Below, in pieces: positions 261 through 35,109 of a stretch of 64,000 nt of DNA (position 1 is the first letter of the stretch; every line of letters begins with the position of its first letter). A program made the position numbers and the translations under genes. Where the stretch lies: the IMG/VR virus record IMGVR_UViG_3300020196_000003. The stretch is one strand, 5' to 3'. The DNA comes from a virus. Under the pieces are notes generated by a model. That model ran no database searches and was not told the origin of the DNA. It saw only the letters and a list, made by a program, of their open reading frames with translations.

Positions 261-264
261 TAAA

Positions 265-1509
265 TTATAAATTTCCAACAATCCTTTCACACCAATCTTT
301 TGAAATTGAGTGAGGCCAAACAACCCAATAGGAAGGTATTTTTGTCGTTGGGAATTCTCTCCATATTTTACCATAACCATCAGGATCATTTTTAATTCTT
401 ACAATTTCATTTGCGTCGGCATCTTGTCTAAAAATTGTTTCATGTTCTTTATCGTGAAATGCCACGACCCAAAAGTCATAATCGGTTTCGGTAACTTTAT
501 TTAAATCCAAATCAATACAATGTTTAAAAATTGTTGAAAATGTTTTTTTCCATGATTCCTCGTTTTCAAAATTGTACGTGTTTGGTGGATATTTTTTATC
601 CAAAGTTTCTTGTTGAACCGCTCTTGTTCTGAATAATATTCCTGCGTATTTTTCATAGTCTTGTACAGTCCTTTCAGACCCAAACCATAATGAATAATTA
701 CCATCAAAAGTTTCACCATCTATACCTAATAACTGTCTGTTTTTAATGTGACAAGCAGTGTTTCTCAAATGCCAATCTTTATCATCATCCCATTGTTTTG
801 TTCTACCTTTTCTTGTGTATTCATGCCAAATCAAAACTTTATGTGGATGAAATAAGTCATAACCATGTGTATATGATCTTACCGTAATTGAAATTTCCTC
901 ACCATGAAAATAAAATTCAGGATCGTGTTGGACTTCAATTGAAAATTGTCCTATCGTGAAACAATAGTGTGCGGAATAAAATCTAGCAGGAATAGGTTCT
1001 TTCATTTCCCTCCATCCTGGTATAATTTCGGGTAAAAAGAATACAACTCCTTCAGGTGTAAATCTATCGAATACCATTCTCCACGGTTCCATAATGCGAG
1101 CGGCGGGATCATTATCAGGATCAAATGATGATACATATCCTGTAAGTAATGGTTTTTTATGCCCTTTCTTTTGAAGTTGTTTAATCATTTTAATCATTTC
1201 TTCGTCCCAATTTTTTTCGAATCTCATATGAGAATCAATTTGTAAAGTATATTCTTCTCCACCATACATTTGTTGGACTTGGTGTCTAGCCCAACAAACA
1301 CCTTTCGATTCCGTATATGGAATGTTTAATATTTTGAATCTTTTGTCTTTGGAATATTTTGATAAATCATCAAAACCATCTTCAGGATGAAATTGTCTTG
1401 CAATACCGAATCTAAGATTTCTTGGTTTTTTTGCATTTTCCAACATGTTTTCAATTGTTTGGATCAATTGTGGGTCTCTGTACGACGCGATTTGTACAAA
1501 TATTTTCAT
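265..1509 (-). CDS. GT60-type (Skp1-hydroxyproline/polypeptide) GlcNAc-transferase-like protein
   Basis: KIFVQIASYRD, SKGVCWARH, YTLQIDSHMRF..WD and FHGEEI motifs of the Pfam GlcNAc/GT60 family. Confidence 0.8.
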   Translation of the reverse strand: MKIFVQIASYRDPQLIQTIENMLENAKKPRNLRFGIARQFHPEDGFDDLSKYSKDKRFKILNIPYTESKGVCWARHQVQQMYGGEEYTLQIDSHMRFEKNWDEEMIKMIKQLQKKGHKKPLLTGYVSSFDPDNDPAARIMEPWRMVFDRFTPEGVVFFLPEIIPGWREMKEPIPARFYSAHYCFTIGQFSIEVQHDPEFYFHGEEISITVRSYTHGYDLFHPHKVLIWHEYTRKGRTKQWDDDKDWHLRNTACHIKNRQLLGIDGETFDGNYSLWFGSERTVQDYEKYAGILFRTRAVQQETLDKKYPPNTYNFENEESWKKTFSTIFKHCIDLDLNKVTETDYDFWVVAFHDKEHETIFRQDADANEIVRIKNDPDGYGKIWREFPTTKIPSYWVVWPHSISKDWCERIVGNL

Positions 1510-1546
1510 AAAATTAAAATATCAAACAAATATCAGTTGTAAATTA

Positions 1547-1843
1547 TTAAGGACCTTCAAAGATATAAATTGACGCATCTTGGAATAAAAAGATAGGAAA
1601 GTCTTGAAACATTTTCCCATAAATTTTTTGGCAGTTAAGAGTATATATTTTTTCACAACCAGCACCATCAACAATTTTTAATATGATTGGTGTTGTGTTG
1701 TCTAATGGAAATGGTATGTCAAATGTAAAAGGACCACCAACGATTGTTGCAACAAAAAAACAATAAGTTATGGTTGCATCACATACATAGATATCAAATG
1801 GTGATGTTCCCGAAATTGAATTTATTTGTAATTGATTTGGCAT
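1547..1843 (-). CDS. hypothetical protein, probably virion-associated
   Basis: 98-aa ORF with TATTTAT motif upstream (1865-1871 on the minus strand). Confidence 0.6.
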   Translation of the reverse strand: MPNQLQINSISGTSPFDIYVCDATITYCFFVATIVGGPFTFDIPFPLDNTTPIILKIVDGAGCEKIYTLNCQKIYGKMFQDFPIFLFQDASIYIFEGP

Positions 1844-1874
1844 TAAAGTCGGTATTGTTTTTAGATAAATATTA

Positions 1875-2003
1875 CTACCCGACTATTTCAATAACTTTTT
1901 GATATACCTGAAGAACTGACGGGTGACATTCAAATTTTTCTTTTCTTTCTAAACAACCAACCAAAGAAGGAATACCTTGTATTGATCCCCACTCTCTAAC
2001 ACC
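1875..2003 (-). pseudogene. 3' remnant of a GT9-like gene paralogous to 11768..12757
   Basis: Translates GVREWGSIQGIPSLVGCLERKEKFECHPSVLQVYQKVIEIVG*, versus GVKEWGSIQGIPPLVNCLENKKSFECHPTVLQVYRKIMELL in the intact gene; no start codon. Confidence 0.85.
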
Positions 2004-2184
2004 AACAGTAACTCAAACGGCTAGTTTGACACCGAGTCATACACCAACGCCAACAGTTACACCATCATACCATCCATGTGGATATCAACCAATTATTGTA
2101 ATACCAAGCCCAAGTAATTATAGGACACCAACACCAACACTAACACCGAACATCAACCCGTGTTTGTTGAGAAGTCTTCAATGA
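1999..2184 (+). pseudogene. 3' remnant of a Pro-Thr-repeat gene similar to 13422..13844
   Basis: TPTVTQTASLTPSHTPTPTVTPSYHPCG...TPTPTLTPNINPCLLRSLQ*, with the same PT...PC...PT...NPC layout; no start codon. Confidence 0.7.
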
Positions 2185-2243
2185 CAAAAATAATAAATTA
2201 CAATAATTATAATGATATATAGATTTAGTTTCCAAGTCATAAA

Positions 2244-2250
2244 TATTTAT
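2244..2250 (+). promoter_or_regulatory. TATTTAT putative late promoter of the fibre gene
   Basis: Motif 8 nt before ATG 2259; recurs before ~18 genes in the window. Confidence 0.6.
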
Positions 2251-2258
2251 AGTTTAAG

Positions 2259-5200
2259 ATGCCACAATATAATAGATTAACTGATAGGTCGAGAGTTTCT
2301 GCGGTCACACTGAATGACATTATACATGTTGTTGTTACTGGTGATACATCACAGAGTCCTCAGGGATCATCATATTTTGCACCTTTAAGTGATTTACAAT
2401 CAATATTAAGCGGATCAAGTGGTACCAATGGTACTTCAGGAACAAATGGAACTAGCGGTACTAATGGTACCTCAGGAATTAATGGGACTAGTGGTTCTTC
2501 AGGAACTTCTGGCTCATCAGGAATAAGTGGAACATCGGGTTCTTCAGGAACAAGTGGTGTTTCAGGTACCAATGGATCAAGTGGTTCAAGCGGTACAAGT
2601 GGAATTAATGGTACATCAGGATCTTCAGGTATTGATGGTAGTAGTGGAACTTCAGGTTCAAGTGGAACCAATGGTACTAGTGGTACAAATGGTTTTGACG
2701 GAACATCAGGATCATCAGGAACTAGTGGTTCTTCAGGATTAAGTGGAACAGATGGTACGTCGGGAAGTTCTGGAACAAGCGGAACAGATGGTACTAGCGG
2801 TACGAATGGAACAAGCGGAACAGATGGTAGTTCAGGAACTAGCGGAACTTCAGGTTCAAGCGGTATTGCTGGGACTAGCGGAACTTCAGGTTCTTCAGGG
2901 ATAGACGGAACAAGTGGTACTTCAGGTTCTTCAGGTATTGACGGCACTTCAGGAACATCGGGATCAAGCGGAACAAGTGGTACTAATGGAACTGATGGGT
3001 CTAGCGGTACGGATGGAACTAATGGGTCAAGTGGAACTTCAGGAACCAACGGTACAGATGGAAGTAGTGGAACATCAGGTTCTAGTGGAACAAATGGTAC
3101 TAGCGGGTCATCCGGATCTAGCGGTACATCAGGGTCAAGTGGAACTAATGGTACTAGCGGGTCTTCAGGTACATCAGGAACTAACGGTACTAATGGAACA
3201 AGTGGAAGTAGCGGTACGGACGGAACATCAGGGTCTTCAGGAACTAATGGGACATCAGGTACAAATGGTACATCAGGAACCAATGGAACTTCAGGAACGA
3301 ACGGTACAAATGGTACATCAGGAACCAATGGAACTTCAGGGACAAGTGGAAGTAGCGGTACCGACGGAACATCAGGGTCTAGCGGTACTAGCGGAAGTTC
3401 GGGAACAAATGGAACATCAGGGTCTAGCGGATCAAGTGGTAGTTCAGGTTCTAGCGGTACAGACGGTACTTCAGGTACTTCAGGTTCAAGTGGTATAGAC
3501 GGTACATCAGGTACATCAGGGAGCTCAGGCTCAAGCGGAACAAGTGGTTCTTCAGGCTCTAGTGGAACAAATGGTTCTTCAGGAACCTCAGGAACTAGCG
3601 GCTCTTCAGGTACAGATGGTACAAGTGGAACAAGTGGTTCATCAGGGACTAGCGGTTCTTCAGGAACAAGTGGTTCATCAGGAACTAGCGGTTCTTCAGG
3701 AACAAGTGGTTCATCAGGTACCTCAGGTTCTAGTGGAAGTTCAGGTACAGATGGTACATCAGGAACAAGTGGTTCTTCAGGTTCTAGTGGAAGTTCAGGT
3801 ACAGATGGTACATCAGGAACAAGTGGTTCATCAGGAACAAGTGGAAGTTCAGGTACAGATGGTTCATCAGGAACAAGCGGTTCATCAGGTACTTCAGGAA
3901 GTTCAGGTTCATCAGGTACTTCAGGAAGTTCAGGTTCATCAGGTACTTCAGGAAGTTCAGGTTCATCAGGTACTTCAGGAAGTTCAGGTTCATCAGGAAC
4001 AGATGGTACAAGTGGTACAAGCGGCTCATCAGGAACAAGCGGTTCATCAGGTACATCAGGGAGCTCAGGTTCAAGCGGAACAAGCGGTTCATCAGGTACT
4101 TCAGGAAGTTCAGGTTCATCAGGTACTTCAGGAAGTTCAGGTTCATCAGGAACAGATGGTACTTCAGGTACATCAGGTTCTAGTGGCTCATCGGGTTCCT
4201 CTGGAACAAGTGGTTCTTCAGGAACCTCAGGTTCTAGCGGCTCATCGGGTACTGATGGCACGTCTGGTACAAGTGGATCATCAGGAACAGATGGTACAAG
4301 TGGATCATCAGGAACAGATGGTACAAGTGGTACATCAGGAAGTTCAGGTACAAGTGGTTCTTCAGGTTCATCAGGAACTTCAGGAAGTTCAGGCTCCTCA
4401 GGTACAAATGGTACTTCAGGGACTGATGGGACTAGCGGAACATCAGGTTCTTCAGGAACTAGCGGAAGCTCAGGTTCTTCAGGAACTAGCGGAAGCTCAG
4501 GTTCTTCAGGAACTAGCGGAAGCTCAGGTTCATCAGGCACTTCAGGTAGCTCAGGTTCTTCAGGAACTAGCGGAAGCTCAGGTTCTTCAGGAACTTCAGG
4601 AAGTTCAGGTTCTTCAGGTACAAATGGTACTTCAGGGACTGATGGGACTAGCGGAACATCAGGTTCTTCAGGAACTAGCGGAAGCTCAGGTTCATCAGGC
4701 ACTTCAGGTAGCTCAGGTTCTTCAGGAACTAGCGGAAGCTCAGGTTCTTCAGGAACTTCAGGAAGTTCAGGTTCTTCAGGAACTTCAGGAACTTCAGGTA
4801 CAAGTGGAACAAATGGAACCAGCGGAACTAATGGTACTTCAGGGACAAATGGTACTAGCGGTAGTTCAGGGACAAATGGTACATCAGGTACTAATGGAAC
4901 TAGCGGGACAAATGGGACAAGCGGAACTAGTGGGACCAACGGCACATCAGGGTCTAGTGGAACAAATGGAACTTCAGGCTCAAGCGGTACCAATGGAACA
5001 TCAGGAAGTTCGGGCACGAATGGTACAAGTGGGTCTTCAGGCACTAACGGTACGTCAGGAACTAATGGAACCTCAGGAACGAACGGTACGAATGGTACTT
5101 CAGGAACAAATGGAACATCAGGTACTAATGGAACAAATGGTACTAGCGGTACAAATGGAACATCAGGTACAAACGGAACATCAGGTACCAACGGTACTAG

Positions 5201-6953
5201 TGGAACGTCGGGAACAAATGGAACCAACGGTACAAGCGGTACCAATGGTACAAGTGGAACTAACGGAACTAGTGGTACAAACGGAACAAATGGTACTTCA
5301 GGCACAAACGGAACCTCAGGAACAAATGGAACCAACGGTACAAGCGGTACAAATGGAACATCAGGTACCAACGGTACTAGTGGAACGTCGGGAACAAATG
5401 GAACCAACGGTACAAGCGGTACCAATGGTACAAGTGGAACATCGGGCACAAACGGAACCTCAGGAACAAATGGAACCAACGGTACAAGCGGTACAAGTGG
5501 AACCAACGGAACTTCAGGTACAAACGGGACAAATGGTACTAGCGGAACTAACGGTACTTCAGGTGTTAACGGAACAAGTGGTACAAATGGTACTTCAGGC
5601 ACTAACGGTACGTCAGGAACAAATGGAACTAGTGGTACATCACCGTCGGTACCGGGAGGGGGGGGCAAAGTTTTAACATCAGATGGGTTGGGTGGGATTA
5701 CGGCAGAATCAAATTTAACTTTTGATGGTACAGAATTAATCGTGACAGGTTATCAAAGAGTTGTTGATACAGTGGGAGGGGCACTTGGAAGTTTAAGAGT
5801 GGATAGTGCTGTCACTAACTTTTTACACAACGCAATATCTGTAACCAATACAGGAGATTTTACTAACACAAATTCATTAGTGGGTGTTAATGTGGATGTT
5901 ACGGATGGTATTTTTTCTAACACATGTTTTGCAGGTTCAACATTTTCCGCATACGGTAGTAATTATGGTATCGATTTGAGAAACAGTTCCACCGAAACCG
6001 GTTCTTCACAATACGGAGCGTCAGTTAGTGTAAACGGTTCAGGACCAACAGAAAAGTATGGGTATTATGGTTCTGTTAGTAATACTTCAGATTATAATTA
6101 TGGTGTTTATGTCAATGTTGAGGACGCGACTGTGGAGAACTACGGACTTTATTCAAGAATTGCTAGTAGTGTTGGAGACACATACGGGTTTTATATATCA
6201 AATACAGGTACGGATTCAGGTGGTTCTGATTTACATTATGGTGGAAAAATTCTTGTTAGTGGTATAGGTCAACCAACAAGTACAGTAAAATACGGGTTGG
6301 AAATTGATTTGACTGGTGATGCAAAAATTAATTATGGAGTTCACATTGATGTTGCAGGCGCAACAGACAATTTTAGTATTGTTACTCAAAATGGTTTTGC
6401 AATTTTTAATAACCTTGGCACATCAACCGCAGATTTTCAAGTCAAAGGAGACACGGATGATAATCTTATTTATGTTGATGCCTCCACAGATAATTTAGGG
6501 ATTGGGACAAACTTACCATCAAGAAAATTACATGTAAATGGTGATTATACTTTTGTTCACAACCCAACTTCAGAATTAACTTCATCTGTTAGTGGTTATG
6601 GTGATATAGTAACATTTGGTTCGGGAAGTTTAACAGCAGGTGATTTATACTATTTGACAAGTTTGGGGTCTTGGTCGGCAACTGATGCAGATGCAGCGTC
6701 AACAGCAACAGGAATGTTAGCGTTTGCGTTGGGGTCCTCCGCATCGGACGGTATGTTAGTTAGAGGTTATATTAGAAATTCAGGATTTACAACAAATACA
6801 GGTAACATAGTCTATGTCTCAACAACCACAGGTGCTGTAACTACAACCGCACCATCAGGTAGCGGAGACATTATTAGAATTATTGGTTATAGTATAGACG
6901 GAACAAATGAAATAATTTATTTTAACCCTGATAATAGTTGGGTAGAGGTTTAA
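2259..6953 (+). CDS. giant Gly-X-Y (GTS/GSS/GTN) repeat fibre protein with beta-repeat and C-terminal globular domains
   Basis: 1564 aa; Gly at every third residue over ~1077 aa, then YG repeats, a GIGTxxPxxKLHVNG fibre motif and a C-terminal domain. Confidence 0.85.
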   Translation: MPQYNRLTDRSRVSAVTLNDIIHVVVTGDTSQSPQGSSYFAPLSDLQSILSGSSGTNGTSGTNGTSGTNGTSGINGTSGSSGTSGSSGISGTSGSSGTSGVSGTNGSSGSSGTSGINGTSGSSGIDGSSGTSGSSGTNGTSGTNGFDGTSGSSGTSGSSGLSGTDGTSGSSGTSGTDGTSGTNGTSGTDGSSGTSGTSGSSGIAGTSGTSGSSGIDGTSGTSGSSGIDGTSGTSGSSGTSGTNGTDGSSGTDGTNGSSGTSGTNGTDGSSGTSGSSGTNGTSGSSGSSGTSGSSGTNGTSGSSGTSGTNGTNGTSGSSGTDGTSGSSGTNGTSGTNGTSGTNGTSGTNGTNGTSGTNGTSGTSGSSGTDGTSGSSGTSGSSGTNGTSGSSGSSGSSGSSGTDGTSGTSGSSGIDGTSGTSGSSGSSGTSGSSGSSGTNGSSGTSGTSGSSGTDGTSGTSGSSGTSGSSGTSGSSGTSGSSGTSGSSGTSGSSGSSGTDGTSGTSGSSGSSGSSGTDGTSGTSGSSGTSGSSGTDGSSGTSGSSGTSGSSGSSGTSGSSGSSGTSGSSGSSGTSGSSGSSGTDGTSGTSGSSGTSGSSGTSGSSGSSGTSGSSGTSGSSGSSGTSGSSGSSGTDGTSGTSGSSGSSGSSGTSGSSGTSGSSGSSGTDGTSGTSGSSGTDGTSGSSGTDGTSGTSGSSGTSGSSGSSGTSGSSGSSGTNGTSGTDGTSGTSGSSGTSGSSGSSGTSGSSGSSGTSGSSGSSGTSGSSGSSGTSGSSGSSGTSGSSGSSGTNGTSGTDGTSGTSGSSGTSGSSGSSGTSGSSGSSGTSGSSGSSGTSGSSGSSGTSGTSGTSGTNGTSGTNGTSGTNGTSGSSGTNGTSGTNGTSGTNGTSGTSGTNGTSGSSGTNGTSGSSGTNGTSGSSGTNGTSGSSGTNGTSGTNGTSGTNGTNGTSGTNGTSGTNGTNGTSGTNGTSGTNGTSGTNGTSGTSGTNGTNGTSGTNGTSGTNGTSGTNGTNGTSGTNGTSGTNGTNGTSGTNGTSGTNGTSGTSGTNGTNGTSGTNGTSGTSGTNGTSGTNGTNGTSGTSGTNGTSGTNGTNGTSGTNGTSGVNGTSGTNGTSGTNGTSGTNGTSGTSPSVPGGGGKVLTSDGLGGITAESNLTFDGTELIVTGYQRVVDTVGGALGSLRVDSAVTNFLHNAISVTNTGDFTNTNSLVGVNVDVTDGIFSNTCFAGSTFSAYGSNYGIDLRNSSTETGSSQYGASVSVNGSGPTEKYGYYGSVSNTSDYNYGVYVNVEDATVENYGLYSRIASSVGDTYGFYISNTGTDSGGSDLHYGGKILVSGIGQPTSTVKYGLEIDLTGDAKINYGVHIDVAGATDNFSIVTQNGFAIFNNLGTSTADFQVKGDTDDNLIYVDASTDNLGIGTNLPSRKLHVNGDYTFVHNPTSELTSSVSGYGDIVTFGSGSLTAGDLYYLTSLGSWSATDADAASTATGMLAFALGSSASDGMLVRGYIRNSGFTTNTGNIVYVSTTTGAVTTTAPSGSGDIIRIIGYSIDGTNEIIYFNPDNSWVEV
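2412..5642 (+). repeat. 9-nt-period coding repeat, ~359 Gly-X-Y triplets
   Basis: 3231 nt = 359 x 9; GGN at period 9 with varied synonymous codons; local exact 27-nt tandem copies (~3885-3995) and a longer duplication (~4400 vs ~4615). Confidence 0.9.
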
Positions 6954-6957
6954 TAAT

Positions 6958-7473
6958 ATGACAAAATTTAACGGTTTTGATTTTTATGATAAAAAACAAG
7001 TTGTTCTAACAAGTGGGATTCCAAGTGCATATGTTAATGCGGCATCCAATACAAAAATCACTTCGGTATTTGTTCCAGCAAATACCTTTGCGGCTGGTGA
7101 TATTTTGAGTATAGAGTGGGTTATTCGGTTAACAGGTGCAACTTCAGGAAACACTACTCTTTTTTTGTATTGGAATGAGACAGATGATTTAACAACACCG
7201 ACTCAGTTACAAACTCGTAATACCTCCAATGCGACTGTTAGTAAGAGGAATTCTCTTAATAGGAGACTTTCAATTGCCGTTGCTAATGGAACAGGTAATG
7301 GGTCAATTATGTATGGTGTTGCCGGAGCACAAGATACAGATTTTCCTGCAGTAACTTTTGCAATATCAAGTGGATTAGTATTAAATTGGACCATAGACTC
7401 TTACATAGTGTTATCCGGTTTTTCTACTATAAATACAGGAATTAGAACAGAGTTTTTCAAAGTTAGTAATTAA
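6958..7473 (+). CDS. fibre-associated protein, paralog 1 of 3
   Basis: Shares PANTFxxGD, RRL...GxGxG and NWTxDxYI/L motifs with 7736 and 8256. Confidence 0.75.
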   Translation: MTKFNGFDFYDKKQVVLTSGIPSAYVNAASNTKITSVFVPANTFAAGDILSIEWVIRLTGATSGNTTLFLYWNETDDLTTPTQLQTRNTSNATVSKRNSLNRRLSIAVANGTGNGSIMYGVAGAQDTDFPAVTFAISSGLVLNWTIDSYIVLSGFSTINTGIRTEFFKVSN

Positions 7474-7478
7474 AAATT

Positions 7479-7739
7479 ATGGTATATTTAGAAAAAAAAT
7501 TAAATACATTAGTTAAGTCTGTAGGTTCAGATGGGGCGTCATTTTTAGATGTCCCAAGAACTCTAACATTCACAATTGTCGATGAAGAGGGTCATAGTGG
7601 ATATTTTTCAAATAATCCAGAGGATGTTTCAATAGAATTAGAGGAAAATATTATTTTTTTCAAAGTTAAAGACACTATAATTGATAATATTGAATTTCTC
7701 GATGCTCAAACAATGATAAATTATATTTACGACTTATGA
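7479..7739 (+). CDS. hypothetical protein
   Basis: 86-aa ORF translationally coupled to the next gene (ATGA overlap). Confidence 0.6.
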   Translation: MVYLEKKLNTLVKSVGSDGASFLDVPRTLTFTIVDEEGHSGYFSNNPEDVSIELEENIIFFKVKDTIIDNIEFLDAQTMINYIYDL

Positions 7740-8263
7740 CAAAGATAATAGGTTTTAATATGTATAGTCCTTTTAAGACTATTAGTTTGACAACTCCTCA
7801 ATCAACTACTTCTTCATTAACAGAAGTTAAGTTGGGATCAGTACTTGTTCCCGCCAACACATTTGGGGCTGGCGATTCTTTGAAAATCGAGTGTTTTGCG
7901 AGAAAACAAAATACAAATGCAGTATCAAACATAAGGTTGTATTGGAATACCTCTGATAGTATATCATCACCAACACCAATTAGAATTGGTGAAAATTTAG
8001 GTATTATTGCAACGGCAACAGCAATTCCAATAGTTAGAAGATTAGGTGTTGTAACATCGGATGGTTCAGGAAGCGGGTCAAGTGCCTTATTAAATACAGT
8101 TGATTTTTTTTCAGATTACATAACATCAGCGGCCGGATTGTCTTCTGACCCAAGTAATTTGGCATTAAATTGGACTGTAGATAGTTATATTATATTGGCG
8201 GGTGATGTTGATAACGCATCAGATATATTAAATTGTCAATGGATAAGAATTACAAATGGCTAA
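7736..8263 (+). CDS. fibre-associated protein, paralog 2 of 3
   Basis: PANTFGAGD, LYWN, RRLGV, LNWTVDSYI, CQWIRITNG. Confidence 0.75.
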   Translation: MTKIIGFNMYSPFKTISLTTPQSTTSSLTEVKLGSVLVPANTFGAGDSLKIECFARKQNTNAVSNIRLYWNTSDSISSPTPIRIGENLGIIATATAIPIVRRLGVVTSDGSGSGSSALLNTVDFFSDYITSAAGLSSDPSNLALNWTVDSYIILAGDVDNASDILNCQWIRITNG

Positions 8264-8771
8264 AATAATCGGGTATAATGTTGGTGTTAAATATAAAGTT
8301 GTAACCACTACAACACCTGCGGGTAGTGTAAACTCAATTTCTAATACTTTAATTAATTCATTGTTAATTCCTGCAAATACATTTTCTTCAGGAGACATTG
8401 TTACGATAGAAACTTGTTTAACAAAAAGTGCAACTAATAATACTTTTAGTTTTTATTTTTATGTTAATACATCCGCAACACTTGTTGGTGCGACTTTAGT
8501 TGCAACAAACACATCAGTTGCAAGTAATGTAAGAGCGGCTCAACTTTATCGTAGACTTGCAGTCGATGTTGCTTCGGGTAGTGGTAATGGCACAATAATA
8601 ATAAACACATCAATAGCTGCGAGAGATGATATAGGTGTCACAAATTATACTACAGGGTTTTCTACTTTAACAACTAATTGGACTACTGACCAATATTTAA
8701 TTGTTTCAGGTTCTGTTGTTAGTACATCAGACACACTTAGTTGTCAGTGGATAAAGGCTTCGAACGGTTAA
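8256..8771 (+). CDS. fibre-associated protein, paralog 3 of 3
   Basis: PANTFSSGD, RRLAV, TNWTTDQYL, CQWIKASNG. Confidence 0.75.
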   Translation: MAKIIGYNVGVKYKVVTTTTPAGSVNSISNTLINSLLIPANTFSSGDIVTIETCLTKSATNNTFSFYFYVNTSATLVGATLVATNTSVASNVRAAQLYRRLAVDVASGSGNGTIIINTSIAARDDIGVTNYTTGFSTLTTNWTTDQYLIVSGSVVSTSDTLSCQWIKASNG

Positions 8772-11717
8772 CTATCTATTATCTATGTAAATTATTACTT
8801 CATTATAATATTCAATGAAGTGTTCGTTCCATAAATCCCATTTTATGTCAATACCATCAACAGAGAAAACTTGGTAATTTGGAAAATTTTTAAGGTAAGT
8901 GTTTCTAAATTTTCTAAAGTTTTCTTTACTTCCTTCATAATAATTTTCATTTAAGTGCCACTCTCCTACAATTTTTTTTACATTATTTTTAATAAACTCA
9001 TAATTATCATCCGTAAAAATATCGTATTCACCACCCTCACAATCGGTTTTTAAAAAATCAATTTTATCTATATTGTATAAGTTCAAAAATTTTGCAAAAG
9101 TAATACTTTCCATTTCATTTTGTGTACCCTTTACTGAGTTGAAAAGTCTGTCGTTTTTGGTAAGACAATCACTGTTCGATATTCCTTTCATGATATGTGT
9201 CACAGGGTTTCCTATTGTATTTTTTACAAGTGTTGGAAAAAGTTCTTTACAAGGTTCGAAACAAAAAATGTGTTTTGGTTTTTTATGTAATATTGAATAA
9301 GTAAATGGCCCTAAACTTGCACCAATATCCAAAACAATGTCACCCTCCTCAACCTCGAAAAATTTTTCATATATTTTATGTTCAAAAATTTCCTTTTTTA
9401 TCGTCTCACTACACCACTCGTTATTAGTTCCCCAATCAAATAAGACCTCATGTACATGATGTGTATTTTCTTCTTTATTTATAATCTTATCTATTTCTTT
9501 TATCACCATTTCAGATGTTATTTGTTTTGAACATTCAAACATTTTTTCACTTCCTTTATGTAAAGGACACCAATTCCAATCACCGGCATCTAACCTGTCC
9601 CAATTAAAACATCCATGACATACATCTTCATTTATGACTCTATATGTATCCAAAGTTGTTTCTGTCCATTTTTTACTAAATCCCGAAATAAGAACTATTG
9701 GTAACTTACAAGCCCAAGCCAACCATGAAAGGCCTGAACCGAGACCTACAAAAAATTCACATGTTGAAAGTTCATTTATTACTTCTTGTAAATCACCCCC
9801 ATTGTATATTTTAACACCTTTTGGATAATAGTTACCCATATAACCATTTCCTTCTTTTGAATAAATTACACATTCATATCCAAGTGAATTCAAATAATCA
9901 ACAACTTCTTGCCAACCATTTTTGTTATTCCAATATTTTGCTTGAGCTGTTGAGTGAAAACCAATACCTGCTTTTTTCTTTTTTGAAACCTCAGGAAGAT
10001 TAAGTTTTGGTCTTATTTCATTATAGTCTAATCCAAGAATATCAGTTGCAGTTTTTTGTAGTGGTTGAAGTTTAAAATCATTTGGATGTCTATTTTGATT
10101 AAACTTACCACTTTCATTATAGTACCATCCAAGTTGATATTGTGCAAAGATATTATAAACAATAACCCCTGGCTCAACAAACTCTATTTCAGGGTATTGG
10201 TCAACAAACAAACTATTTAAAAAAGTTGATACAATGAGTTTGCAATTATGTTTTTTTCTAAATTCTTCGCAGTAAGGCATCCAAGCCAAAGTGTCCCCTA
10301 ATGACTTTGAGCCAAACGATATATATACTCTTTTATTTTCTAAATTTAATATATCTGAAAAAACAACATTTCCATTTTCTTTAATTTCAGTTTTCCATGC
10401 TGTAAAATATTCTCTATTAAGTTTGACCCAAGAATTCATATCAATATTGTTGTTATAAATTATATTATTTTTTTCATCATAAAATGCAACTTCAAATTTT
10501 GAATTGCCGTCACCTACTATTTCAAGATAAGGGTTTACAACAAAATGTTGGTTTATTTTATAATCCTTATCAATCTTTTTGTTTTCAACAAAATCACAAT
10601 TTTGTACTTTGTTATAAAACTTAAATAACTGATTTCCAAAACTTTCTTCTTCTTTGATAATGTAAGTTTTTTTGTCCTCGATTAATTGAATTAATTTTTT
10701 TGAAATATCTTCGAAGTTATTTGAATCAATTGGAGTAATGTAGTCATCAAACATTCCCATGTATTGAGGTAAATTTCTTGTTAAAATTTTAAGACCATAA
10801 CTTATGGACTCACGAACCACAAGAGGATTACACTCAACTAATGAATTAAACATTAAAACATCTGATGCAATCATAAAGGATTCAACATCATTTCTTTCAC
10901 CCCAAATGGTTACGTTAGATGGTAAGTTTTCCATGAGTGGACCCCAATAGTATTCAAAATTTTCGGCCTGATTTCCAACAAAATGGAATTGAATGTTTGG
11001 ATGAGTTTTTTCTAAAATACGAGCAATTTCAATACCTTCTTTTTGATTTTTTCCTTCTGTCCATAACCCAACATTAAGAACATGGGTTTTTGTTAAATCT
11101 AAACCTAATTGTTCTCTTCGATTAATTTTTTCAATCAACGGAACTTTATGTTCTGTTTTTGAAATTGTGTTTTTGTGGTATAAATAACTCACCTTATCCT
11201 CCAATGGATATGTAATGACTTCTTTAGGTGATTGTTTTTTATTATAAAGATTTTCTAAATGATATGGCGTTACAAAACAATAATAATCTGGTTCAAAATT
11301 TTTATTGTTATTTGCATTGTACCAAATATTATGACAAGACTCAACAATTTTATAAGACCTATTGTTATTATAAATCTCGTTTAAAATATTAAGAGGTATT
11401 TTGTTAAAACTTTCAAAACCTTCAGGTACTTCTTCGAAATGAACAATATCTATATTGTTATTTTTTATTATATCAAATAACTCTATTTTTTTTTCTTTTT
11501 CTGTAAAAGAACCAAGAGAAATGAAATGATTATTTCCTAACAAATCTATAATTTTATTTCTTTGTACCAAATAAATTGTGCTAAACTGCGAATATTCAAC
11601 CAAATATACTTCAATTTCATTTTTGAATTTTTGCAAAGATTCAATTCTTTTTAATACAAATTGTGGCATCCCTCCTGTTGAAAGGTGAGGAACCACATAC
11701 ATCAACTTTAATTTCAT
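8772..11717 (-). CDS. tri-domain GT4 / TibC-AAH-type protein O-heptosyltransferase-like / FkbM methyltransferase
   Basis: N-terminal GT4 (PHLSTGG; SDVLMFNSLVECNPLVVRESISYG); central SLGDTLAWMPYCEEFRKKHNC, FVGLGSGLSWLAWA and Cys motif CHGCFN...WCPLH...FEC; C-terminal VLDIGASLG and KTDCEGGE. Confidence 0.8.
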   Translation of the reverse strand: MKLKLMYVVPHLSTGGMPQFVLKRIESLQKFKNEIEVYLVEYSQFSTIYLVQRNKIIDLLGNNHFISLGSFTEKEKKIELFDIIKNNNIDIVHFEEVPEGFESFNKIPLNILNEIYNNNRSYKIVESCHNIWYNANNNKNFEPDYYCFVTPYHLENLYNKKQSPKEVITYPLEDKVSYLYHKNTISKTEHKVPLIEKINRREQLGLDLTKTHVLNVGLWTEGKNQKEGIEIARILEKTHPNIQFHFVGNQAENFEYYWGPLMENLPSNVTIWGERNDVESFMIASDVLMFNSLVECNPLVVRESISYGLKILTRNLPQYMGMFDDYITPIDSNNFEDISKKLIQLIEDKKTYIIKEEESFGNQLFKFYNKVQNCDFVENKKIDKDYKINQHFVVNPYLEIVGDGNSKFEVAFYDEKNNIIYNNNIDMNSWVKLNREYFTAWKTEIKENGNVVFSDILNLENKRVYISFGSKSLGDTLAWMPYCEEFRKKHNCKLIVSTFLNSLFVDQYPEIEFVEPGVIVYNIFAQYQLGWYYNESGKFNQNRHPNDFKLQPLQKTATDILGLDYNEIRPKLNLPEVSKKKKAGIGFHSTAQAKYWNNKNGWQEVVDYLNSLGYECVIYSKEGNGYMGNYYPKGVKIYNGGDLQEVINELSTCEFFVGLGSGLSWLAWACKLPIVLISGFSKKWTETTLDTYRVINEDVCHGCFNWDRLDAGDWNWCPLHKGSEKMFECSKQITSEMVIKEIDKIINKEENTHHVHEVLFDWGTNNEWCSETIKKEIFEHKIYEKFFEVEEGDIVLDIGASLGPFTYSILHKKPKHIFCFEPCKELFPTLVKNTIGNPVTHIMKGISNSDCLTKNDRLFNSVKGTQNEMESITFAKFLNLYNIDKIDFLKTDCEGGEYDIFTDDNYEFIKNNVKKIVGEWHLNENYYEGSKENFRKFRNTYLKNFPNYQVFSVDGIDIKWDLWNEHFIEYYNEVIIYIDNR

Positions 11718-11767
11718 AATTTGAAAATAATTTATTCATATTATTTGTGAAGTTTCTTACATTTTAA

Positions 11768-12757
11768 GTGATGAAAAAAGTTTGTTTGGATTTATCTCAA
11801 TCAAGAGCTCTTGGTGATACATTATGTTCAACACCAACGATTAGAAAATTATATAATTCTTATAATCAAAAAATTTCCATTATAACTCACCACAAAGAAA
11901 TTTTTAAAAACAATCCATATGTTGATGTTATTTTCGATGTTGATGTGGAAAATCTAACAGATGAGTATGAAATTTTTAATTCCTTTGATGTTTTTTATAA
12001 ACCAAATGGTGTTTGTAATAAACATAATGTTATGGATATACGACAATTTCATGCAATTAATCTTGGGTTCATGTTAACAAAAAATGAAATGACCTTAGAT
12101 TATATTCCATCACAAACTTCAATTATGAAAGAAATTCCAAGAAAATATGTTTTAATTCATCCCGTACAGAATTGGAATTCAAGAACTTGGTCAATTGATA
12201 ATTGGAGGGTACTAACAAAATTATTAAACGAGCAAAATATAAATGTGGTTTCAATTGGAAAAAATTCATCTGAGTTTGGAGGTTCAAATGTGGAAAAACA
12301 TGTTTTTGATTTTGATATTGATTTGGGGGTTAATTTAATGAACAAAACAACTTTAGATGAAACATGGAACTTGATTGAATATTCATTGTGTTTTGTTACA
12401 ATGGACTCAGGACTTTTACATTTGGCAGGAACAACCGATGCTCAAATAATTCAACTTGGAAGTTCAATAAACTATGAATTTAGAGCTCCTTATAGAAATG
12501 GTTCACAAGATTACAAATATTCTTACGTTGGTGGTGGTTGTAATTTGGCATGTGCTTCTGATATGAAACATGGGGTAAAAGAATGGGGGTCAATTCAAGG
12601 GATACCCCCACTTGTTAATTGTTTAGAAAATAAAAAATCATTTGAATGTCATCCTACGGTATTACAGGTATATAGAAAAATAATGGAATTACTGCAGTCT
12701 GTATTTATAATATATGGCAACATTCAAGACATGAATTTTTTTCAAGTCAAAGTTTAA
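11768..12757 (+). CDS. GT9 (heptosyltransferase-like) glycosyltransferase
   Basis: LGDTLCSTPTIRKL, FVTMDSGLLHLA and a Cys-containing C-terminus; the last ~20 aa appear to read through the cassette junction. Confidence 0.75.
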   Translation: MMKKVCLDLSQSRALGDTLCSTPTIRKLYNSYNQKISIITHHKEIFKNNPYVDVIFDVDVENLTDEYEIFNSFDVFYKPNGVCNKHNVMDIRQFHAINLGFMLTKNEMTLDYIPSQTSIMKEIPRKYVLIHPVQNWNSRTWSIDNWRVLTKLLNEQNINVVSIGKNSSEFGGSNVEKHVFDFDIDLGVNLMNKTTLDETWNLIEYSLCFVTMDSGLLHLAGTTDAQIIQLGSSINYEFRAPYRNGSQDYKYSYVGGGCNLACASDMKHGVKEWGSIQGIPPLVNCLENKKSFECHPTVLQVYRKIMELLQSVFIIYGNIQDMNFFQVKV

Positions 12758-13328
12758 TTTTTCTTTGGTTTGAATTTTTTTAAGTATTGATGGTTTTTTG
12801 TTTTCAATTGGGTATTGAAGAACTTTTTTATAAACTTTTTCTAATTCGAACGTTTTTAAATGATATGGAGTTACAAACAAATATGAGTCAGGACGAAATT
12901 TTCTGTTTTTTGGATCAAACCAAATGTTATGACATGTCTCAACAATCTTCCAAGTTCTTTTGTTATCATATAACTCGGTAAGAATACTAATTGGAATTTG
13001 ATTGAAACTTTCAAACCCTTCAGAAATTTCTTCAATGTGAACAATATCAATTTGATTTTTTTTTATGATATCAACTAACTTATTTTTTTTTTTCGATATG
13101 GTTTGGTGTTCCCAAAGAATAAAAATTATCTTCACCGATTAGGTCTATTATTTTATTTCTTTGGACAACATATTGATTACCAAAATAAGAATATTCAACA
13201 ACGTTTACTTTAAAATTATTATATAAAGATTGAATTCTTTTCAATGCAAATTGGGGCATCCCACCTGTTGATAAGTGAGGAACAACGTATAATATATTAA
13301 TTTTTATCGATAGAAAATTTTGTTTCAT
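12689..13328 (-). pseudogene. frameshifted, truncated paralog of the GT4 N-terminus of 8772..11717
   Basis: YVVPHLSTGGMPQF...IDIVHIEEISEGFESFN...ETCHNIW...FVTPYHL...HVLNV, split at an A11 run (13083-13093); homology stops at ~12718. Confidence 0.85.
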
Positions 13329-13421
13329 TTAACTTAATAATAAAAAACATTTAAAAAAAATCATTTATTTATTATTAATTTCGAACTATTTGAAATTAAA
13401 ATCGATCTTTTACTTAAAAAA

Positions 13422-13844
13422 TTATTGTGTAATACACGGATTCCAACTTGGTGTTGGTGTTGGACTGTTGCTCACGGTAGGGGTTGGAGTTGGGGTTGAT
13501 GTTGTGGTTGGTGTTAATGTTGGAACTTTACAAGGATCGATAGATGGTGTTGGTGTTATCGTTGAAGTTGGAGTTGGTGTGGGGGTTTTTGTTGGAGTAA
13601 TAGTCGGAGTTGGTGTAGGAGTCGGTCTAACAACATCTAAAAAATAAGGACAATTAGAAAAAACAGGTTTGATAGTATATGATCCATATATTTCTCTTGG
13701 TGGATATAATAAATGAGGTTCAAATAAGAATGGTAATGTTATTTCGTGTAAATTAATGACAACATCATCATTGTCTGGTTTGAATAACACTTCTGCTAAT
13801 TCACCATCATAAAAAACACTTCGAATTATTATATTTTGACTCAT
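13422..13844 (-). CDS. Pro-Thr-repeat (mucin-like) protein
   Basis: 140 aa; C-terminal (PT)n tracts punctuated by DPC/NPC. Confidence 0.75.
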   Translation of the reverse strand: MSQNIIIRSVFYDGELAEVLFKPDNDDVVINLHEITLPFLFEPHLLYPPREIYGSYTIKPVFSNCPYFLDVVRPTPTPTPTITPTKTPTPTPTSTITPTPSIDPCKVPTLTPTTTSTPTPTPTVSNSPTPTPSWNPCITQ

Positions 13845-16031
13845 CTATGTATTAATTATTGTGTATGTAAAATCATTAGGGAAACATGATGATGTGTCAC
13901 ATACAGGACAATCGGGGTCGAACATGCTAAACTTATCTTTTAATATTTTAAAATTGTGTTTCACCTCAGGACTAGAAATAGGTTGAGTATAAAATCTAAA
14001 TTGAGAAATTGCACCGTCTAAAGTTCCTGCAAAATTTTCTTCCAATAAAATGTGTGTTTTCAATTTATTTAAAGTTGTTGCACTCAATATGTTTTCAGGA
14101 AAACATTCGGGATCTTGAATATAATACCCTTCTGACGTATCGGTACAAGAAGATAAGGTAAGATTTTCATGAAGTCCTTGAGTTCCCCCACCCCAAGACA
14201 TATTGAACGGAACGGCCACTTGTCTTTCTTTGTCGGTGTCTAAAGCCCTCGGAATTACTTCTTCAAAATTTTCGATAGTATAAAATATTCTTCCATTGAT
14301 ATAGATTTTTAATCTACCCAACCTAAATTTAGTTTCATCTAACCAAATTCGATTTAGTTGGACTATCTTTACTTGTTGTGGGATTTCATATCCATTTGTG
14401 TAAGGAGGTTGGATTAAGGATACTGTGTTATTTGCCAAACTTTGTAAAAACTCTACTCTTGTTATTTGATCTAATCCACCAAACCATCTGAGGTCACAAA
14501 AATCTATAAAAGTATAACGTTCGAAAACAACATCCAATAAGAACCAATGCTCTAAGTTTAACCAAGCTGGATTTACTTCTAAACAATAAGGATAAATTGG
14601 TGGCGTACAAATATCTTGTATTGTATATCCAGTGACATAAGTTTGACCTGTTACACATGTTCCAGTAGTTTGACATTCTCCTGTAATTTTCAAAACTCGA
14701 ATTCCAATACCAGGATTTTTTGGGTCGCCACACAAACGGATAGAAAAATTATTTGACAAAGCGTCAAATTTTGGATCTTTTTCACAAGTATCCTCTATTG
14801 ATTTAAAGACATTGGAAGGTTCAGTTGGCGGACATCCACAAGTATCACAACCACAACTTGGACATGCCGTACAACAAGGTTTTGTTGGGCATGGTATCAC
14901 ATCAGAATATGTATCACATGATGGAGTTGGTGATGGAGTAGGTGTTGGTGTTGGTGTCGGGACAATTATTGTTTCACACTTATGTTCGAAACACATCCAT
15001 CCACAGGTTTTACAGGGGTCCAAATCACAACCGCATCCACATGTCAGTTTTGTTTCATAATTCCCATTACATAAGTTACATCCGTAATTCACATGAGGAT
15101 CGTATTCACCACCAATTGGTCTCGGCGGATATACGTAAATACATCTACTATTTTTGATATCATAATTACAACAAGCACAAGTTTCGAAACAATTAGTTAA
15201 ACCACTTGTAACTCTCGTATAATTTGAGTCGCATTTTGGTGAACCATCGGCATAATGATAAAATTTATTTTCTGCTCTTGTTCCCAAATAGAATAACGTA
15301 TTTTTGTTTTTTGGATAAATTTCATTCAAAGTTGTATATCCAACAGGTGGGTTGTATTCATTAAAAAATCTTGGTTTTAACAAAACTTCAACTGACCATC
15401 CTTTATTGAATCGTTCAGGTAATATTTCATAGTCATAACCAAATAATTTATAAAAACCTTGATAAAATCCACCATATAGTTCAATGTATCTCCCAACTTG
15501 GGGACTATACTTAGAAACCATTTCGTAAGAAGTGTAGTAAGTAACACCTGAAAATTTATTGTTCTTTGGTACATTTGTTGTTGTTTGAATAAGTTTCATT
15601 CTTCGGTCATAAAACATTCTATTAAATTTTACTTCATCACTAAAAAGTCCGTTTGTAAAATTTAATAATTCACCTTCAATTAAATTTACCAATCCGTTAT
15701 CAACTCCCGTTAATCCAATATCACAAGTTGTTCCAGCGGTGAAACATTCAATTCTTAAATCCTCGGGTTGATAAAAAGTTTCAGATATAACAACATTTTC
15801 AAAATTGTAGGACCCATAGTTTAATGTTAAATTTAAGGAAGATAGAGGGCTATTCAAATCAATATTAATGGGTAATTTTTTACCGTCATTAACACCTATT
15901 ATATATGGTGAAAAAATAACTTCTTGATTGAAGTCGACCTCATCGGAAGCTAAAGACATATCTTGTCCATCATAAAGGACTTGTAATTTTAACTTTGGGT
16001 AAATATATTGATTTATATTTTGATAAGACAT
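13845..16031 (-). CDS. Cys-rich putative virion protein with PT linker and LamG/ConA-like elements
   Basis: 728 aa, ~38 Cys; LKIYING and GAISQFRFY..PIS..EV..NF segments resemble LamG. Confidence 0.65.
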   Translation of the reverse strand: MSYQNINQYIYPKLKLQVLYDGQDMSLASDEVDFNQEVIFSPYIIGVNDGKKLPINIDLNSPLSSLNLTLNYGSYNFENVVISETFYQPEDLRIECFTAGTTCDIGLTGVDNGLVNLIEGELLNFTNGLFSDEVKFNRMFYDRRMKLIQTTTNVPKNNKFSGVTYYTSYEMVSKYSPQVGRYIELYGGFYQGFYKLFGYDYEILPERFNKGWSVEVLLKPRFFNEYNPPVGYTTLNEIYPKNKNTLFYLGTRAENKFYHYADGSPKCDSNYTRVTSGLTNCFETCACCNYDIKNSRCIYVYPPRPIGGEYDPHVNYGCNLCNGNYETKLTCGCGCDLDPCKTCGWMCFEHKCETIIVPTPTPTPTPSPTPSCDTYSDVIPCPTKPCCTACPSCGCDTCGCPPTEPSNVFKSIEDTCEKDPKFDALSNNFSIRLCGDPKNPGIGIRVLKITGECQTTGTCVTGQTYVTGYTIQDICTPPIYPYCLEVNPAWLNLEHWFLLDVVFERYTFIDFCDLRWFGGLDQITRVEFLQSLANNTVSLIQPPYTNGYEIPQQVKIVQLNRIWLDETKFRLGRLKIYINGRIFYTIENFEEVIPRALDTDKERQVAVPFNMSWGGGTQGLHENLTLSSCTDTSEGYYIQDPECFPENILSATTLNKLKTHILLEENFAGTLDGAISQFRFYTQPISSPEVKHNFKILKDKFSMFDPDCPVCDTSSCFPNDFTYTIINT

Positions 16032-16042
16032 GCGTTTTTCTT

Positions 16043-16069: not shown

Positions 16070-16084
16070 TGTAAAAAATATAAC

Positions 16085-34202: not shown

Positions 34203-35109
34203 AATTTTAGTAACAGGCGGTCATGGTTTGGTTGGGTCTGAATTTATTGGTGACCAATATTTCAAACCAACTTCTAAAGAATATGATTTAAGAAATCCAC
34301 AAGAAGTTAATAGATTAATGTTAAAGAATTTTGATAGTGTAATACATACTGCGGGAAAAGTAGGTGGGTTAGGTGGTAATATGAATCATAAAGGAGAATT
34401 TTTTTATGACAACATAATGATAAACACTAACGTAATAGAGTCTTCAAGACTTACAAAAGTAAAAAATTTAGTGGCATTTTTGTCAACATGTGTATTCCCC
34501 GATAATGTAGAATATCCCTTAACTGAGAAAAAAGTTCATTTGGGTCCACCCCACTTTTCTAATGACGCATATGCATATGCTAAAAGAATGACCGATATTC
34601 AAATAACAGCATATAAAGAACAGTATGGATTAAATTATAAATCAGTTATACCATCAAATATCTATGGTCCTAATGATAATTACGATATTATTAATGGTCA
34701 TGTTATACCGTCACTAATTCACAAATGTTATCTTGCAAGAGAAAATAAAACCCCTCTTAAAATATGGGGATCAGGAAATCCGCTAAGAGAATTTATTTTT
34801 AGTAAAGATGTTGCAAAATTAACTGAATGGGCGCTGTTTAATTACAATGAAAATGAACCAATAATACTTTCAACATCAGAAGAAATATCAATTAAAGAGA
34901 TTGTTAATATTATTATTGAGCTGATGAATTTTAAAGGTGAAGTAATGTTTGATTCATCTAAACCTGATGGTCAACATAGAAAACCTTCTGACAATTCTAA
35001 AATAAAAAATTATTTACCTGAATTTAAGTTCACTCCTATATATGAAGGGTTAAAAGAAACTATTGAATTTTTCGAAAACAATTATAGTTTTGTAAGAAAA
35101 AATGGATAA
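34192..35109 (+). CDS. fcl: GDP-L-fucose synthase
   Basis: GGHGLVGS, AGKVGG, STCVFP, YAYAKR, PSNIYGP.DN, WGSG.PLREF, KPDG. Confidence 0.9.
   Translation: MENKILVTGGHGLVGSEFIGDQYFKPTSKEYDLRNPQEVNRLMLKNFDSVIHTAGKVGGLGGNMNHKGEFFYDNIMINTNVIESSRLTKVKNLVAFLSTCVFPDNVEYPLTEKKVHLGPPHFSNDAYAYAKRMTDIQITAYKEQYGLNYKSVIPSNIYGPNDNYDIINGHVIPSLIHKCYLARENKTPLKIWGSGNPLREFIFSKDVAKLTEWALFNYNENEPIILSTSEEISIKEIVNIIIELMNFKGEVMFDSSKPDGQHRKPSDNSKIKNYLPEFKFTPIYEGLKETIEFFENNYSFVRKNG

Follow-up and report, generated by a model that had tools for sequence, protein, structure and literature searches.

We analysed a 64,000-nucleotide stretch of the IMG/VR virus record IMGVR_UViG_3300020196_000003 (hereafter the window, with positions counted from its first letter), in which the gene for a 981-aa fusion enzyme (8772..11717, minus strand) lies near the gene for a 1564-aa fibre protein (2259..6953, plus strand) containing 359 Gly-X-Y triplets. 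The central domain of the enzyme resembles TibC and AAH, members of the BAHT family, which are known solely with autotransporters (eLife 2014, PMC4358343; PDB 4RAP, 4RB4). We propose, with a probability of roughly 0.6, that the window enzyme represents a new BAHT branch that would O-glycosylate the 359-triplet repeat of the phage's own fibre, the glycans then being extended and methyl-capped. Judging from gene neighbourhoods, the fibre is the likely target because the pairing of enzyme and fibre recurs in many phages and on bacterial chromosomes.

Under this proposal, the TibC-like domain would attach sugars to Ser and Thr hydroxyls along the 359-triplet stretch in the infected cell, before or during virion assembly. 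The fused glycosyltransferase family 4 (GT4) domain and a neighbouring GT9 would extend these sugars and the fused FkbM domain would methyl-cap them, so that the outcome would be a fibre with a dense sugar coat. The original prediction, made from the letters of the window and their open reading frames (ORFs), had named a Ser/Thr-rich fibre, a TibC/GT4/FkbM fusion, a GT9, a GT60 and Pro-Thr proteins as parts of such a system, and all five are present in the window.

The TibC-like fusion enzyme and the Gly-Thr-Ser fibre

The 981-aa protein joins a GT4 domain (PF00534, 4.8e-16), a TibC-like O-glycosyltransferase domain (residues 352-750; 9468..10664, minus strand) and an FkbM methyltransferase domain (PF05050, 7.6e-10). 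TIGR04414, the NCBI curated TibC/Aah equivalog model, matched residues 406-745 with 281.1 bits against a cut-off of 200, and phmmer aligned the TibC-like domain with residues 40-386 of Escherichia coli TibC (PDB 4RAP) at 1e-63. An AlphaFold2 (AF2) model of residues 352-750 had a predicted local distance difference test score (pLDDT) of 83. Foldseek superposed it on 4RAP with a template-modelling (TM) score of 0.78-0.82 over 379-387 of 381-390 residues (E = 4e-33), N-terminal beta-barrel included; the next best matches, lipopolysaccharide (LPS) GT9 heptosyltransferases, reached a TM score of ~0.5. By sequence and predicted fold, the central domain is a member of the TibC/AAH (BAHT) family, as had been anticipated from its four-Cys motif, and the hidden Markov model (HMM) searches that the original prediction had proposed for TibC and GT60 returned matches for both.

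Taking residue roles from PMC4358343, we aligned the domain with TibC. The catalytic base Asp-110 corresponds to Asp475, the iron-finger cysteines C339/C342/C358/C370 to Cys700/Cys703/Cys717/Cys729, and Thr-226, Lys-230 and Trp-305 to Thr590, Lys594 and Trp665. All of these are invariant in the 10- and 14-sequence alignments of the branch; iron binding is predicted only. The beta-hairpin thumb tip (F265, V266) and Phe-368 of BAHT enzymes are needed for the dodecamer (PMC4358343). In the alignment of the window domain with TibC, Phe-368 corresponds to Phe727, and the thumb tip aligns with Tyr626-Met627, apparently keeping a hydrophobic pair.

The fibre protein consists of a 51-aa conserved N-terminus, 359 Gly-X-Y triplets without interruption (residues 52-1128; 2412..5642, plus strand) and a 436-aa C-terminal region (5643..6950, plus strand). 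Within the triplets, the X position is Thr in 235 cases and Ser in 112, the Y position is Ser in 262, Asn in 71 and Asp in 25, and Pro is absent. Ser and Thr together make up 725 residues of the whole protein, in agreement with the hundreds of Ser/Thr in Gly-X-Y triplets first noticed. This Gly-Thr/Ser-Ser/Asn/Asp repeat is the proposed glycan acceptor on account of its composition and of the same repeat chemistry beside phage and bacterial TibC-like genes. Its DNA pattern matched 122 times in the window against 0 in 100 shuffles, and the long ORFs read from 2360-5676 in any other frame or strand are repeat shadows. Of the two criteria of a collagen, uninterrupted Gly-X-Y periodicity is present over all 359 triplets, whereas X and Y positions rich in Pro or hydroxyproline are not; because the repeat lacks Pro, 'collagen-like' here refers to periodicity only.

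The fibre N-terminus is 87-89% identical in three related loci (L001-L003; L and G numbers are our identifiers for loci and contigs), and the C-terminal region is 39-54% identical in L001, L002, L004 and L008. The AF2 model of the C-terminal region (mean pLDDT 58.5) has a beta-solenoid-like middle of low confidence, followed by a ~125-aa domain (final 125 residues, pLDDT ~80) resembling capsid decoration proteins. VIA-align matched these final 125 residues to the decoration proteins of Pam3 (8hdt_G, Z 9.0), HFTV1 (8qsy, Z 8.2) and Adjutor (8saj, Z 8.1), with root-mean-square deviations of 3.2-3.4. Matches in BFVD were the C-termini of phage collagen-repeat and fibre-like proteins. From these matches and the likeness to decoration proteins, the 1564-aa protein is, as modelled, a virion fibre, with positions on head and tail alike possible. 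Pfam, PHROGs and NCBIfam held no match for the fibre C-terminus. An apparent AIDA autotransporter passenger in this region, seen in uncorrected BLASTP, vanished with composition-based statistics and SEG and was compositional.

In lake-water runs, the repeat region 2149-5370 was covered at a summed contig depth of 1000-1600, mostly at 90-95% identity, which indicates that many distinct Gly-Thr-Ser repeat genes exist in those lakes.

Pairing of enzyme and repeat protein in phages and bacteria

Scanning IMG/VR with the TibC-like domain gave 42 loci at 35-77% identity. GT9, GT4, TibC-like and FkbM domains occur together in all lineages of this set, with fusions shuffled among relatives: all four separate, GT9-GT4-TibC in one chain, all four in one 1639-aa chain, or GT4-FkbM. 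Recurrence of the same four domains in shuffled fusions places them in one pathway. A second, shorter TibC paralogue often comes after the first in relatives. A Ser/Thr-rich Gly-X-Y protein adjoins the enzyme in the window clade and in L020/L021, and a single giant Ser/Thr-rich Gly-X-Y ORF is present in the window, as in each of three large related contigs.

For the reverse test, IMG/VR was scanned for a DNA pattern of eight Gly-(Ser/Thr)-X triplets, which gave at least 120 stretches; the numbers that follow are for the 40 viral contigs of at least 30 kb among the matches listed, picked by repeat DNA alone. TIGR04414 matched in 15 of these 40 contigs and exceeded its cut-off in 14, and four of the seven contigs that were at least 90% complete carried the enzyme. 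Control contigs picked by a Walker-A DNA pattern had none above the TIGR04414 cut-off (0/36), though they held more total DNA (14/40 versus 0/36, P = 3.9e-5, Fisher test). Fibre genes and AAH-like glycosyltransferase genes thus co-occur across phages, as the original prediction had expected them to. In 10 of 13 newly found contigs the giant repeat ORF lay 0-11 kb from the enzyme gene (chance expectation 3.1, P = 4e-5). These pairings differ in gene order and orientation, in their neighbours and in GC content (0.32-0.43), and the paired phage enzymes, with different domain fusions, share mutual identities as low as 35-47%. The repeat pattern under-counts, because Ser codons are often AGY in Microcystis phage Mel-JY01: it had no match there, in a genome whose translation shows the repeat.

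Mel-JY01 (PP395634.1) is the only isolate in the phage collection with a TibC-like domain, which lies in a 1226-aa GT4-TibC fusion annotated 'methyltransferase FkbM'. On the plus strand, positions 2-3052 form an open frame of at least 1016 aa with Gly-Thr-Ser and Gly-Ser-Ser triplets that runs off the start of the linear record. It lies 1.7 kb away on the upstream side of the fusion gene, from which a 'structural protein' gene separates it. The record instead lists minus-strand 'hypothetical proteins' at 1-651 and 739-2298. The minus-strand translation of 739-2298 is a Pro-Glu-Val-Pro shadow pattern; the Mel-JY01 fibre gene is annotated on the wrong strand, and 739-2298 at least is an antisense shadow.

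On another viral contig, GC-rich and carrying a 1375-aa GT4-TibC-like ORF (L306 of G016, 1187-5314), an intein lies within the GT4 part; it has a sub-threshold PF14890 match (30.6 bits against a cut-off of 35.8) and a LAGLIDADG domain.

A profile scan of the genomes of 185,579 species returned 211 relatives, and 80 loci were examined. Repeat-protein neighbours were seen within the Methylococcales (Methylobacter luteus, one complete Methylobacter chromosome and other members) as well as in Methylomicrobium, in Arenicellales, one of them a 5.2-Mb chromosome, and in additional Gammaproteobacteria. There the homologue is a stand-alone gene of 370-430 aa, 41-172 bp from a repeat protein of 130-320 aa with a signal-peptide or lipoprotein-type N-terminus, runs of Gly-Thr-Ser or Gly-Ser-Ser triplets and no solenoid. 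In Methylobacter luteus IMV-B-3098 the TibC-like gene (locus L311, 9797-11095) adjoins one for a 287-aa repeat protein. NCBIfam had no dedicated model for these bacterial Gly-Thr-Ser proteins, giving sub-threshold collagen-adhesin matches only. Among the bacterial loci, some contigs from metagenome-assembled genomes (MAGs) probably derive from phages, which does not apply to the chromosomal cases. Homologues in Franconibacter, Enterobacter, Kosakonia, Burkholderia, Paraburkholderia and Selenomonadales adjoin proteins of 1800-2550 aa, and AIDA-type autotransporters (PF16168, up to 2e-150) were confirmed in all three neighbours scanned (Franconibacter, Paraburkholderia and an Acidaminococcaceae MAG).

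In a maximum-likelihood tree of 139 domains (one phage paralogue of <280 aa was left out), a single branch with 100% support had all 12 rows with an autotransporter-sized neighbour on one side (51 rows) and all 36 repeat-protein-neighbour rows on the other (88 rows), together with the window domain and all other phage domain rows in the tree. None of 500 label shuffles matched this split. A repeat-protein neighbour was present in 18 of 43 clusters at 60% identity. Next to the window enzyme there is no autotransporter in the window; its neighbour is the Gly-X-Y fibre. Accordingly, as part of the proposal, we consider it probable that these enzymes form a distinct, previously undescribed BAHT branch whose partners are Pro-free Gly-Thr/Ser-Ser/Thr/Asn repeats and not AIDA autotransporters.

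The bacterial cases also bear on the idea that enzyme and fibre gene hitch-hike in one mobile fibre cassette without any enzyme-substrate meaning, or that a small molecule or DNA is the target. Fibre loci of phages are known to be mobile, the window locus is inverted relative to that of L001 with a GT4 remnant at the junction, and many phage glycosyltransferases act on DNA (PMC12619734). The same pairing, however, is found across several bacterial orders, on chromosomes where the two genes are 41-172 bp apart, and in phage enzymes just 35-47% identical to one another with different fusions. We regard this alternative, in either form, as highly improbable. We know of no BAHT-family member that acts on DNA.

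A second alternative is that the module modifies the host envelope (LPS core, capsule, or host Gly-Thr-Ser or autotransporter proteins) for superinfection exclusion or host takeover, the fibre being a mere neighbour. GT9 and GT4 are classical LPS-core families, the best PDB match of the GT4 domain is WaaG/RfaG (weak, 0.0017), the window holds a large operon of nucleotide-sugar and glycosyltransferase genes of a kind typical of surface-glycan synthesis, and the bacterial Gly-Thr-Ser proteins are conceivable targets of a phage enzyme. We nevertheless find it quite unlikely: the TibC-like domain scores above the cut-off of a curated model for a protein-acting family, rearranged loci repeatedly place it next to the repeat fibre of the phage itself, and the bacterial homologues are paired, operon-like, with repeat proteins of their own. 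Membrane-embedded glycan machinery is also missing from the window, where no ORF has three or more membrane-like segments and there is therefore no flippase, polymerase or ligase; this fits glycan assembly on soluble acceptors.

The enzymes might instead act on other virion parts (capsid, tail, proteins with Pro-Thr linkers or the beta-solenoid of the fibre C-terminus), with the linkage reflecting a shared structural or host-range cassette. Pro-Thr proteins stand beside the module in the window, capsid and portal genes adjoin it in G004, G018, G034 and L040, and the fibre C-terminus, predicted at low pLDDT to be beta-solenoid-like, would have the classical shape of a BAHT acceptor. Mycobacteriophage glycosyltransferases modify the C-termini of capsid and tail-tube proteins, according to Freeman et al. 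2023 as cited in PMC12619734. Yet the Gly-Thr/Ser repeat is the only feature common to the phage and bacterial neighbours, the short bacterial partners have no solenoid, and the likeness of the fibre C-terminus to autotransporters was lost after composition correction. We regard these other virion targets as unlikely.

Several observations nonetheless weigh against glycosylation of the fibre repeat. Known BAHTs modify Ser, not Thr, in beta-helix strand-loop-strand motifs (PMC4358343), whereas the acceptor proposed here would be a Thr-abundant Gly-X-Y repeat. About eight phage lineages (L017-19, L022-26, L027-30, L031-36, L037, L038 and L042) have no such repeat protein within 10 kb of the enzyme, and the distance is 24 kb in G003 and 63 kb in G016. 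The P values for linkage in phages overstate independence because they ignore shared ancestry. Arg-286 of TibC is replaced by Val646 in the window and by Val in at least 90% of the branch, so that three of the four donor-binding residues are kept, and the stereoselectivity residue Pro-300 is Gly in this branch. Neither an RfaE-type heptose kinase nor a clear GmhA was found in the three large related contigs and Mel-JY01.

The original prediction had the phage initiating, extending and methylating O-glycans on its own fibre. Its core, a functional tie between a protein-acting TibC-type enzyme and the Ser/Thr-rich fibre, has strong support from comparative genomics, through the pairings in diverged phages, Mel-JY01 and bacteria and through the tree; for extension and methylation the support is limited to the recurrent fusion and co-occurrence of GT9, GT4 and FkbM with the TibC-like domain. 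A wider reading, which we hold tentatively and rate somewhat short of even odds, is that a widespread, unrecognised TibC/AAH branch hyper-glycosylates the Pro-free Gly-Thr/Ser-X repeats of phage fibres (up to >5000 residues) and of small exported bacterial lipoproteins. The role of hydroxyproline would here fall to the sugars, which would stabilise a triple helix or form a mucin-like brush, and GT4, GT9 and FkbM would build a methyl-capped oligosaccharide at each site, from a donor that is possibly not ADP-heptose.

Donor sugar, neighbouring genes and source phage

Arg-286 of TibC contacts adenine, and the R286A mutant is inactive (PMC4358343). Because this residue has become Val and Pro-300 has become Gly, the donor sugar of the TibC-like domain may be other than ADP-heptose. 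A 21-kb plus-strand block of the window (18895-39790) encodes a fusion of GDP-mannose dehydratase (GMD) and GNAT, a DegT aminotransferase, an epimerase/reductase, a HAD-nucleotidyltransferase fusion and glycosyltransferases of families GT2, GT10, GT11 and GT25, plus a dUTPase, a 3'-5' exonuclease and PhoH, and no membrane proteins. This enzyme set suggests that the 18.9-39 kb operon would make GDP-fucose- or perosamine-type sugars rather than heptose. In the same block, a small cytidylyl/adenylyl-transferase-like protein (35102..35548, plus strand) is a possible donor maker. Its best model is RfaE domain II (ADP-heptose synthase; TIGR02199, 67 bits), far under the cut-off of 181, with TIGR01518 at 59 bits; homologues lie 1-2 kb from TibC-like genes in L037, L038 and L333. 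Heptose as the sugar drew no support from any test, and neither did two elements of the original prediction, the use of nucleotide sugars from the 18.9-39 kb operon and modification of the Pro-Thr proteins.

A GmhA-like gene in G002 was considered as part of a phage heptose pathway and rejected, its neighbours being NeuB-, PtmA- and aminotransferase-like, as in a nonulosonic-acid pathway. The G002 cluster (L045, 4959-13763) comprises an aminotransferase, an SDR (PtmA-like) protein, and GmhA/PtmF-like, NeuB-like, GDP-fucose-synthase-like and PseC/RfbH-like proteins, and from its gene content looks like a phage-borne nonulosonic-acid (legionaminic/pseudaminic-type) pathway.

In the window the gene order is GT60, a 98-aa gene, fibre, three 171-aa genes, GT4-TibC-FkbM and GT9; in the relative L001 it is GT60, GT9, GT4-TibC-FkbM, three 171-aa genes, fibre and the 98-aa gene. 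Since the gene orders are reversed, the fibre-to-GT9 block is inverted relative to L001 (window 1875-13328 against L001 6494-17056). At the edge of this segment, two overlapping ORFs (12689..13328, minus strand) are a frameshifted partial copy of a GT4 N-terminus, both matching about residues 8-148 of the GT4-TibC proteins of relatives, and are likely a pseudogene remnant.

The GT9-family glycosyltransferase (329 aa, four C-terminal Cys; 11768..12757, plus strand) matched PF01075 at 6e-16 (59 bits against a 22-bit cut-off), stayed under all NCBIfam equivalog cut-offs and had a weak TIGR04414 match (1e-7). In many phage lineages the TibC-like gene has a homologue of this GT9 (44-68% identity) as a companion or fusion partner. 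The 414-aa product of ORF 265..1509 (minus strand) belongs to the GT60 family (PF11397, 1.1e-67, 229.5 bits against a 21-bit cut-off; phrog_24687, 4e-164), and its designation as a GlcNAc-transferase is family knowledge. A GT60 gene stands beside the module in L001, L003, L006 and L007 and is 10 kb off in G029. Jumbo phages of Xanthomonas and Stenotrophomonas carry homologues at 42-48% identity, and none of these phages is among the phage records with a TibC-like domain. Because GT60 occurs in jumbo phages with no TibC-like gene, its tie to the fibre is one of neighbourhood, and its suggested action on the fibre found no support.

The 98-aa conserved protein (1547..1843, minus strand) appears to travel with the fibre locus, with homologues at 49-71% identity flanking the fibre and glycosyltransferase genes in L001-L007 and L011-L013. 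Directly 3' of the fibre gene, three paralogous 171-175-aa proteins and an 86-aa protein (6958..8771, plus strand) form a set conserved downstream of the fibre in L001, L004, L007 and L008 at 53-90% identity. Both of the predicted Pro-Thr proteins were recovered. One is a 140-aa protein with long Pro-Thr runs in its tail (13422..13844, minus strand; phrog_15511, 6.8e-07), whose homologue in L002 is the N-terminus of a 502-aa Ser/Thr-rich protein; the other is a 728-aa Cys-rich protein with a Pro-Thr linker (13845..16031, minus strand). Pfam, PHROGs and NCBIfam gave no match for the 98-aa protein, the 171-aa paralogues, the 86-aa protein or the 728-aa protein.

The phage is of the T4-like type, of low GC (~30%) and from a lake, and genes in the window specify a capsid protein of gp23 type, a portal of gp20 type, a large terminase and HSP70. 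Megablast of 6900-16100 against phage records gave no match, and no DNA-level match to any cultured phage was found; near-identical DNA was present in at least 18 lake-water metagenome runs. All that two runs presumed to be RNA contained was short relatives' contigs over 10285-12721 together with cross-matches to the repeat, which speaks neither for nor against expression. The capsid protein shares 41-47% identity with its counterparts in Mel-JY01, in Flavobacterium 'immuto' phages and in an uncultured phage of 484 kb. Its gene (48172-50109, minus strand) encodes 645 aa, of which T4 gp23 structures cover residues 334-619 only and relatives align to about half, as two pieces. These partial alignments suggest ~200-250 extra residues between the N-terminal and core parts. 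An HSP70/DnaK gene lies at 63021-63977 (minus strand). PMC12619734 describes 'moraphages' as large phages of aquatic habitats whose DnaK resembles that of Flavobacteriaceae and which have four core families of glycosyltransferases; the window phage may belong in or near this lineage.

Comparison with known systems

A full-text literature search returned no paper linking enzymes of BAHT type with phages or with collagen-like or Gly-Thr-Ser repeats. If the proposal is right, the BAHT family would gain a second substrate class, and the stability and function of enormous Pro-free Gly-X-Y fibres, abundant in lake phages, would be accounted for. Large aquatic myoviruses would join actinophages in encoding the glycosylation of their virions, with enzymes of an unrelated family, and several thousand metagenomic proteins labelled 'autotransporter O-heptosyltransferase' with no autotransporter nearby would acquire a probable function. 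Microcystis phage Mel-JY01 and Methylobacter luteus are culturable systems with the pairing.

The window enzyme shares with TibC and AAH the curated HMM, the predicted fold with its N-terminal beta-barrel, the catalytic Asp, the four-Cys finger, the counterparts of Thr226, Lys230, Trp305 and Phe368 and, apparently, a hydrophobic thumb tip. Like them, it would be a soluble cytoplasmic enzyme whose gene adjoins that of a Ser-rich repeat protein, the presumed substrate. Unlike them, it lies on the opposite side of the 100%-support split from the AIDA-neighbour enzymes, its partner is a Gly-Thr/Ser-X repeat and not a beta-helix autotransporter, Val and Gly replace Arg-286 and Pro-300, and it occurs in phages, where the domain forms fusions with GT4, FkbM or GT9.

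Bacillus anthracis BclA, with Thr-rich Gly-X-Y repeats, and the collagen-like fibril proteins of Mimivirus form particle-surface filaments with O-glycans on Thr, Ser or hydroxylated residues. The window fibre is likewise a Gly-X-Y repeat filament for which O-glycans are proposed; BclA differs in its Gly-Pro-Thr repeats and enzyme families, whereas the fibre here is Pro-free and the candidate enzyme is BAHT-type. GT60 polypeptide alpha-GlcNAc-transferases (Gnt1/GntB of Dictyostelium and those of Trypanosoma cruzi) act on proteins. ORF 265-1509 resembles them in its strong PF11397 match and differs in being a phage protein that is also found in jumbo phages with no TibC-like gene.

A further parallel is with mycobacteriophages Che8, Corndog and Myrna, in which virion glycosylation was experimentally demonstrated (Freeman et al. 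2023, doi 10.1016/j.chom.2023.05.028, as cited in PMC12619734). In both systems, glycosyltransferases encoded by the phage would act in the cytoplasm, adding O-glycans to structural proteins of that same phage. As that system is described in the citing article, the enzyme families are unrelated to those found here, and the acceptors are short C-terminal tags of capsid and tail-tube proteins, whereas the candidate acceptor in the window, deduced from its genes, is a repeat fibre of more than 1000 residues.

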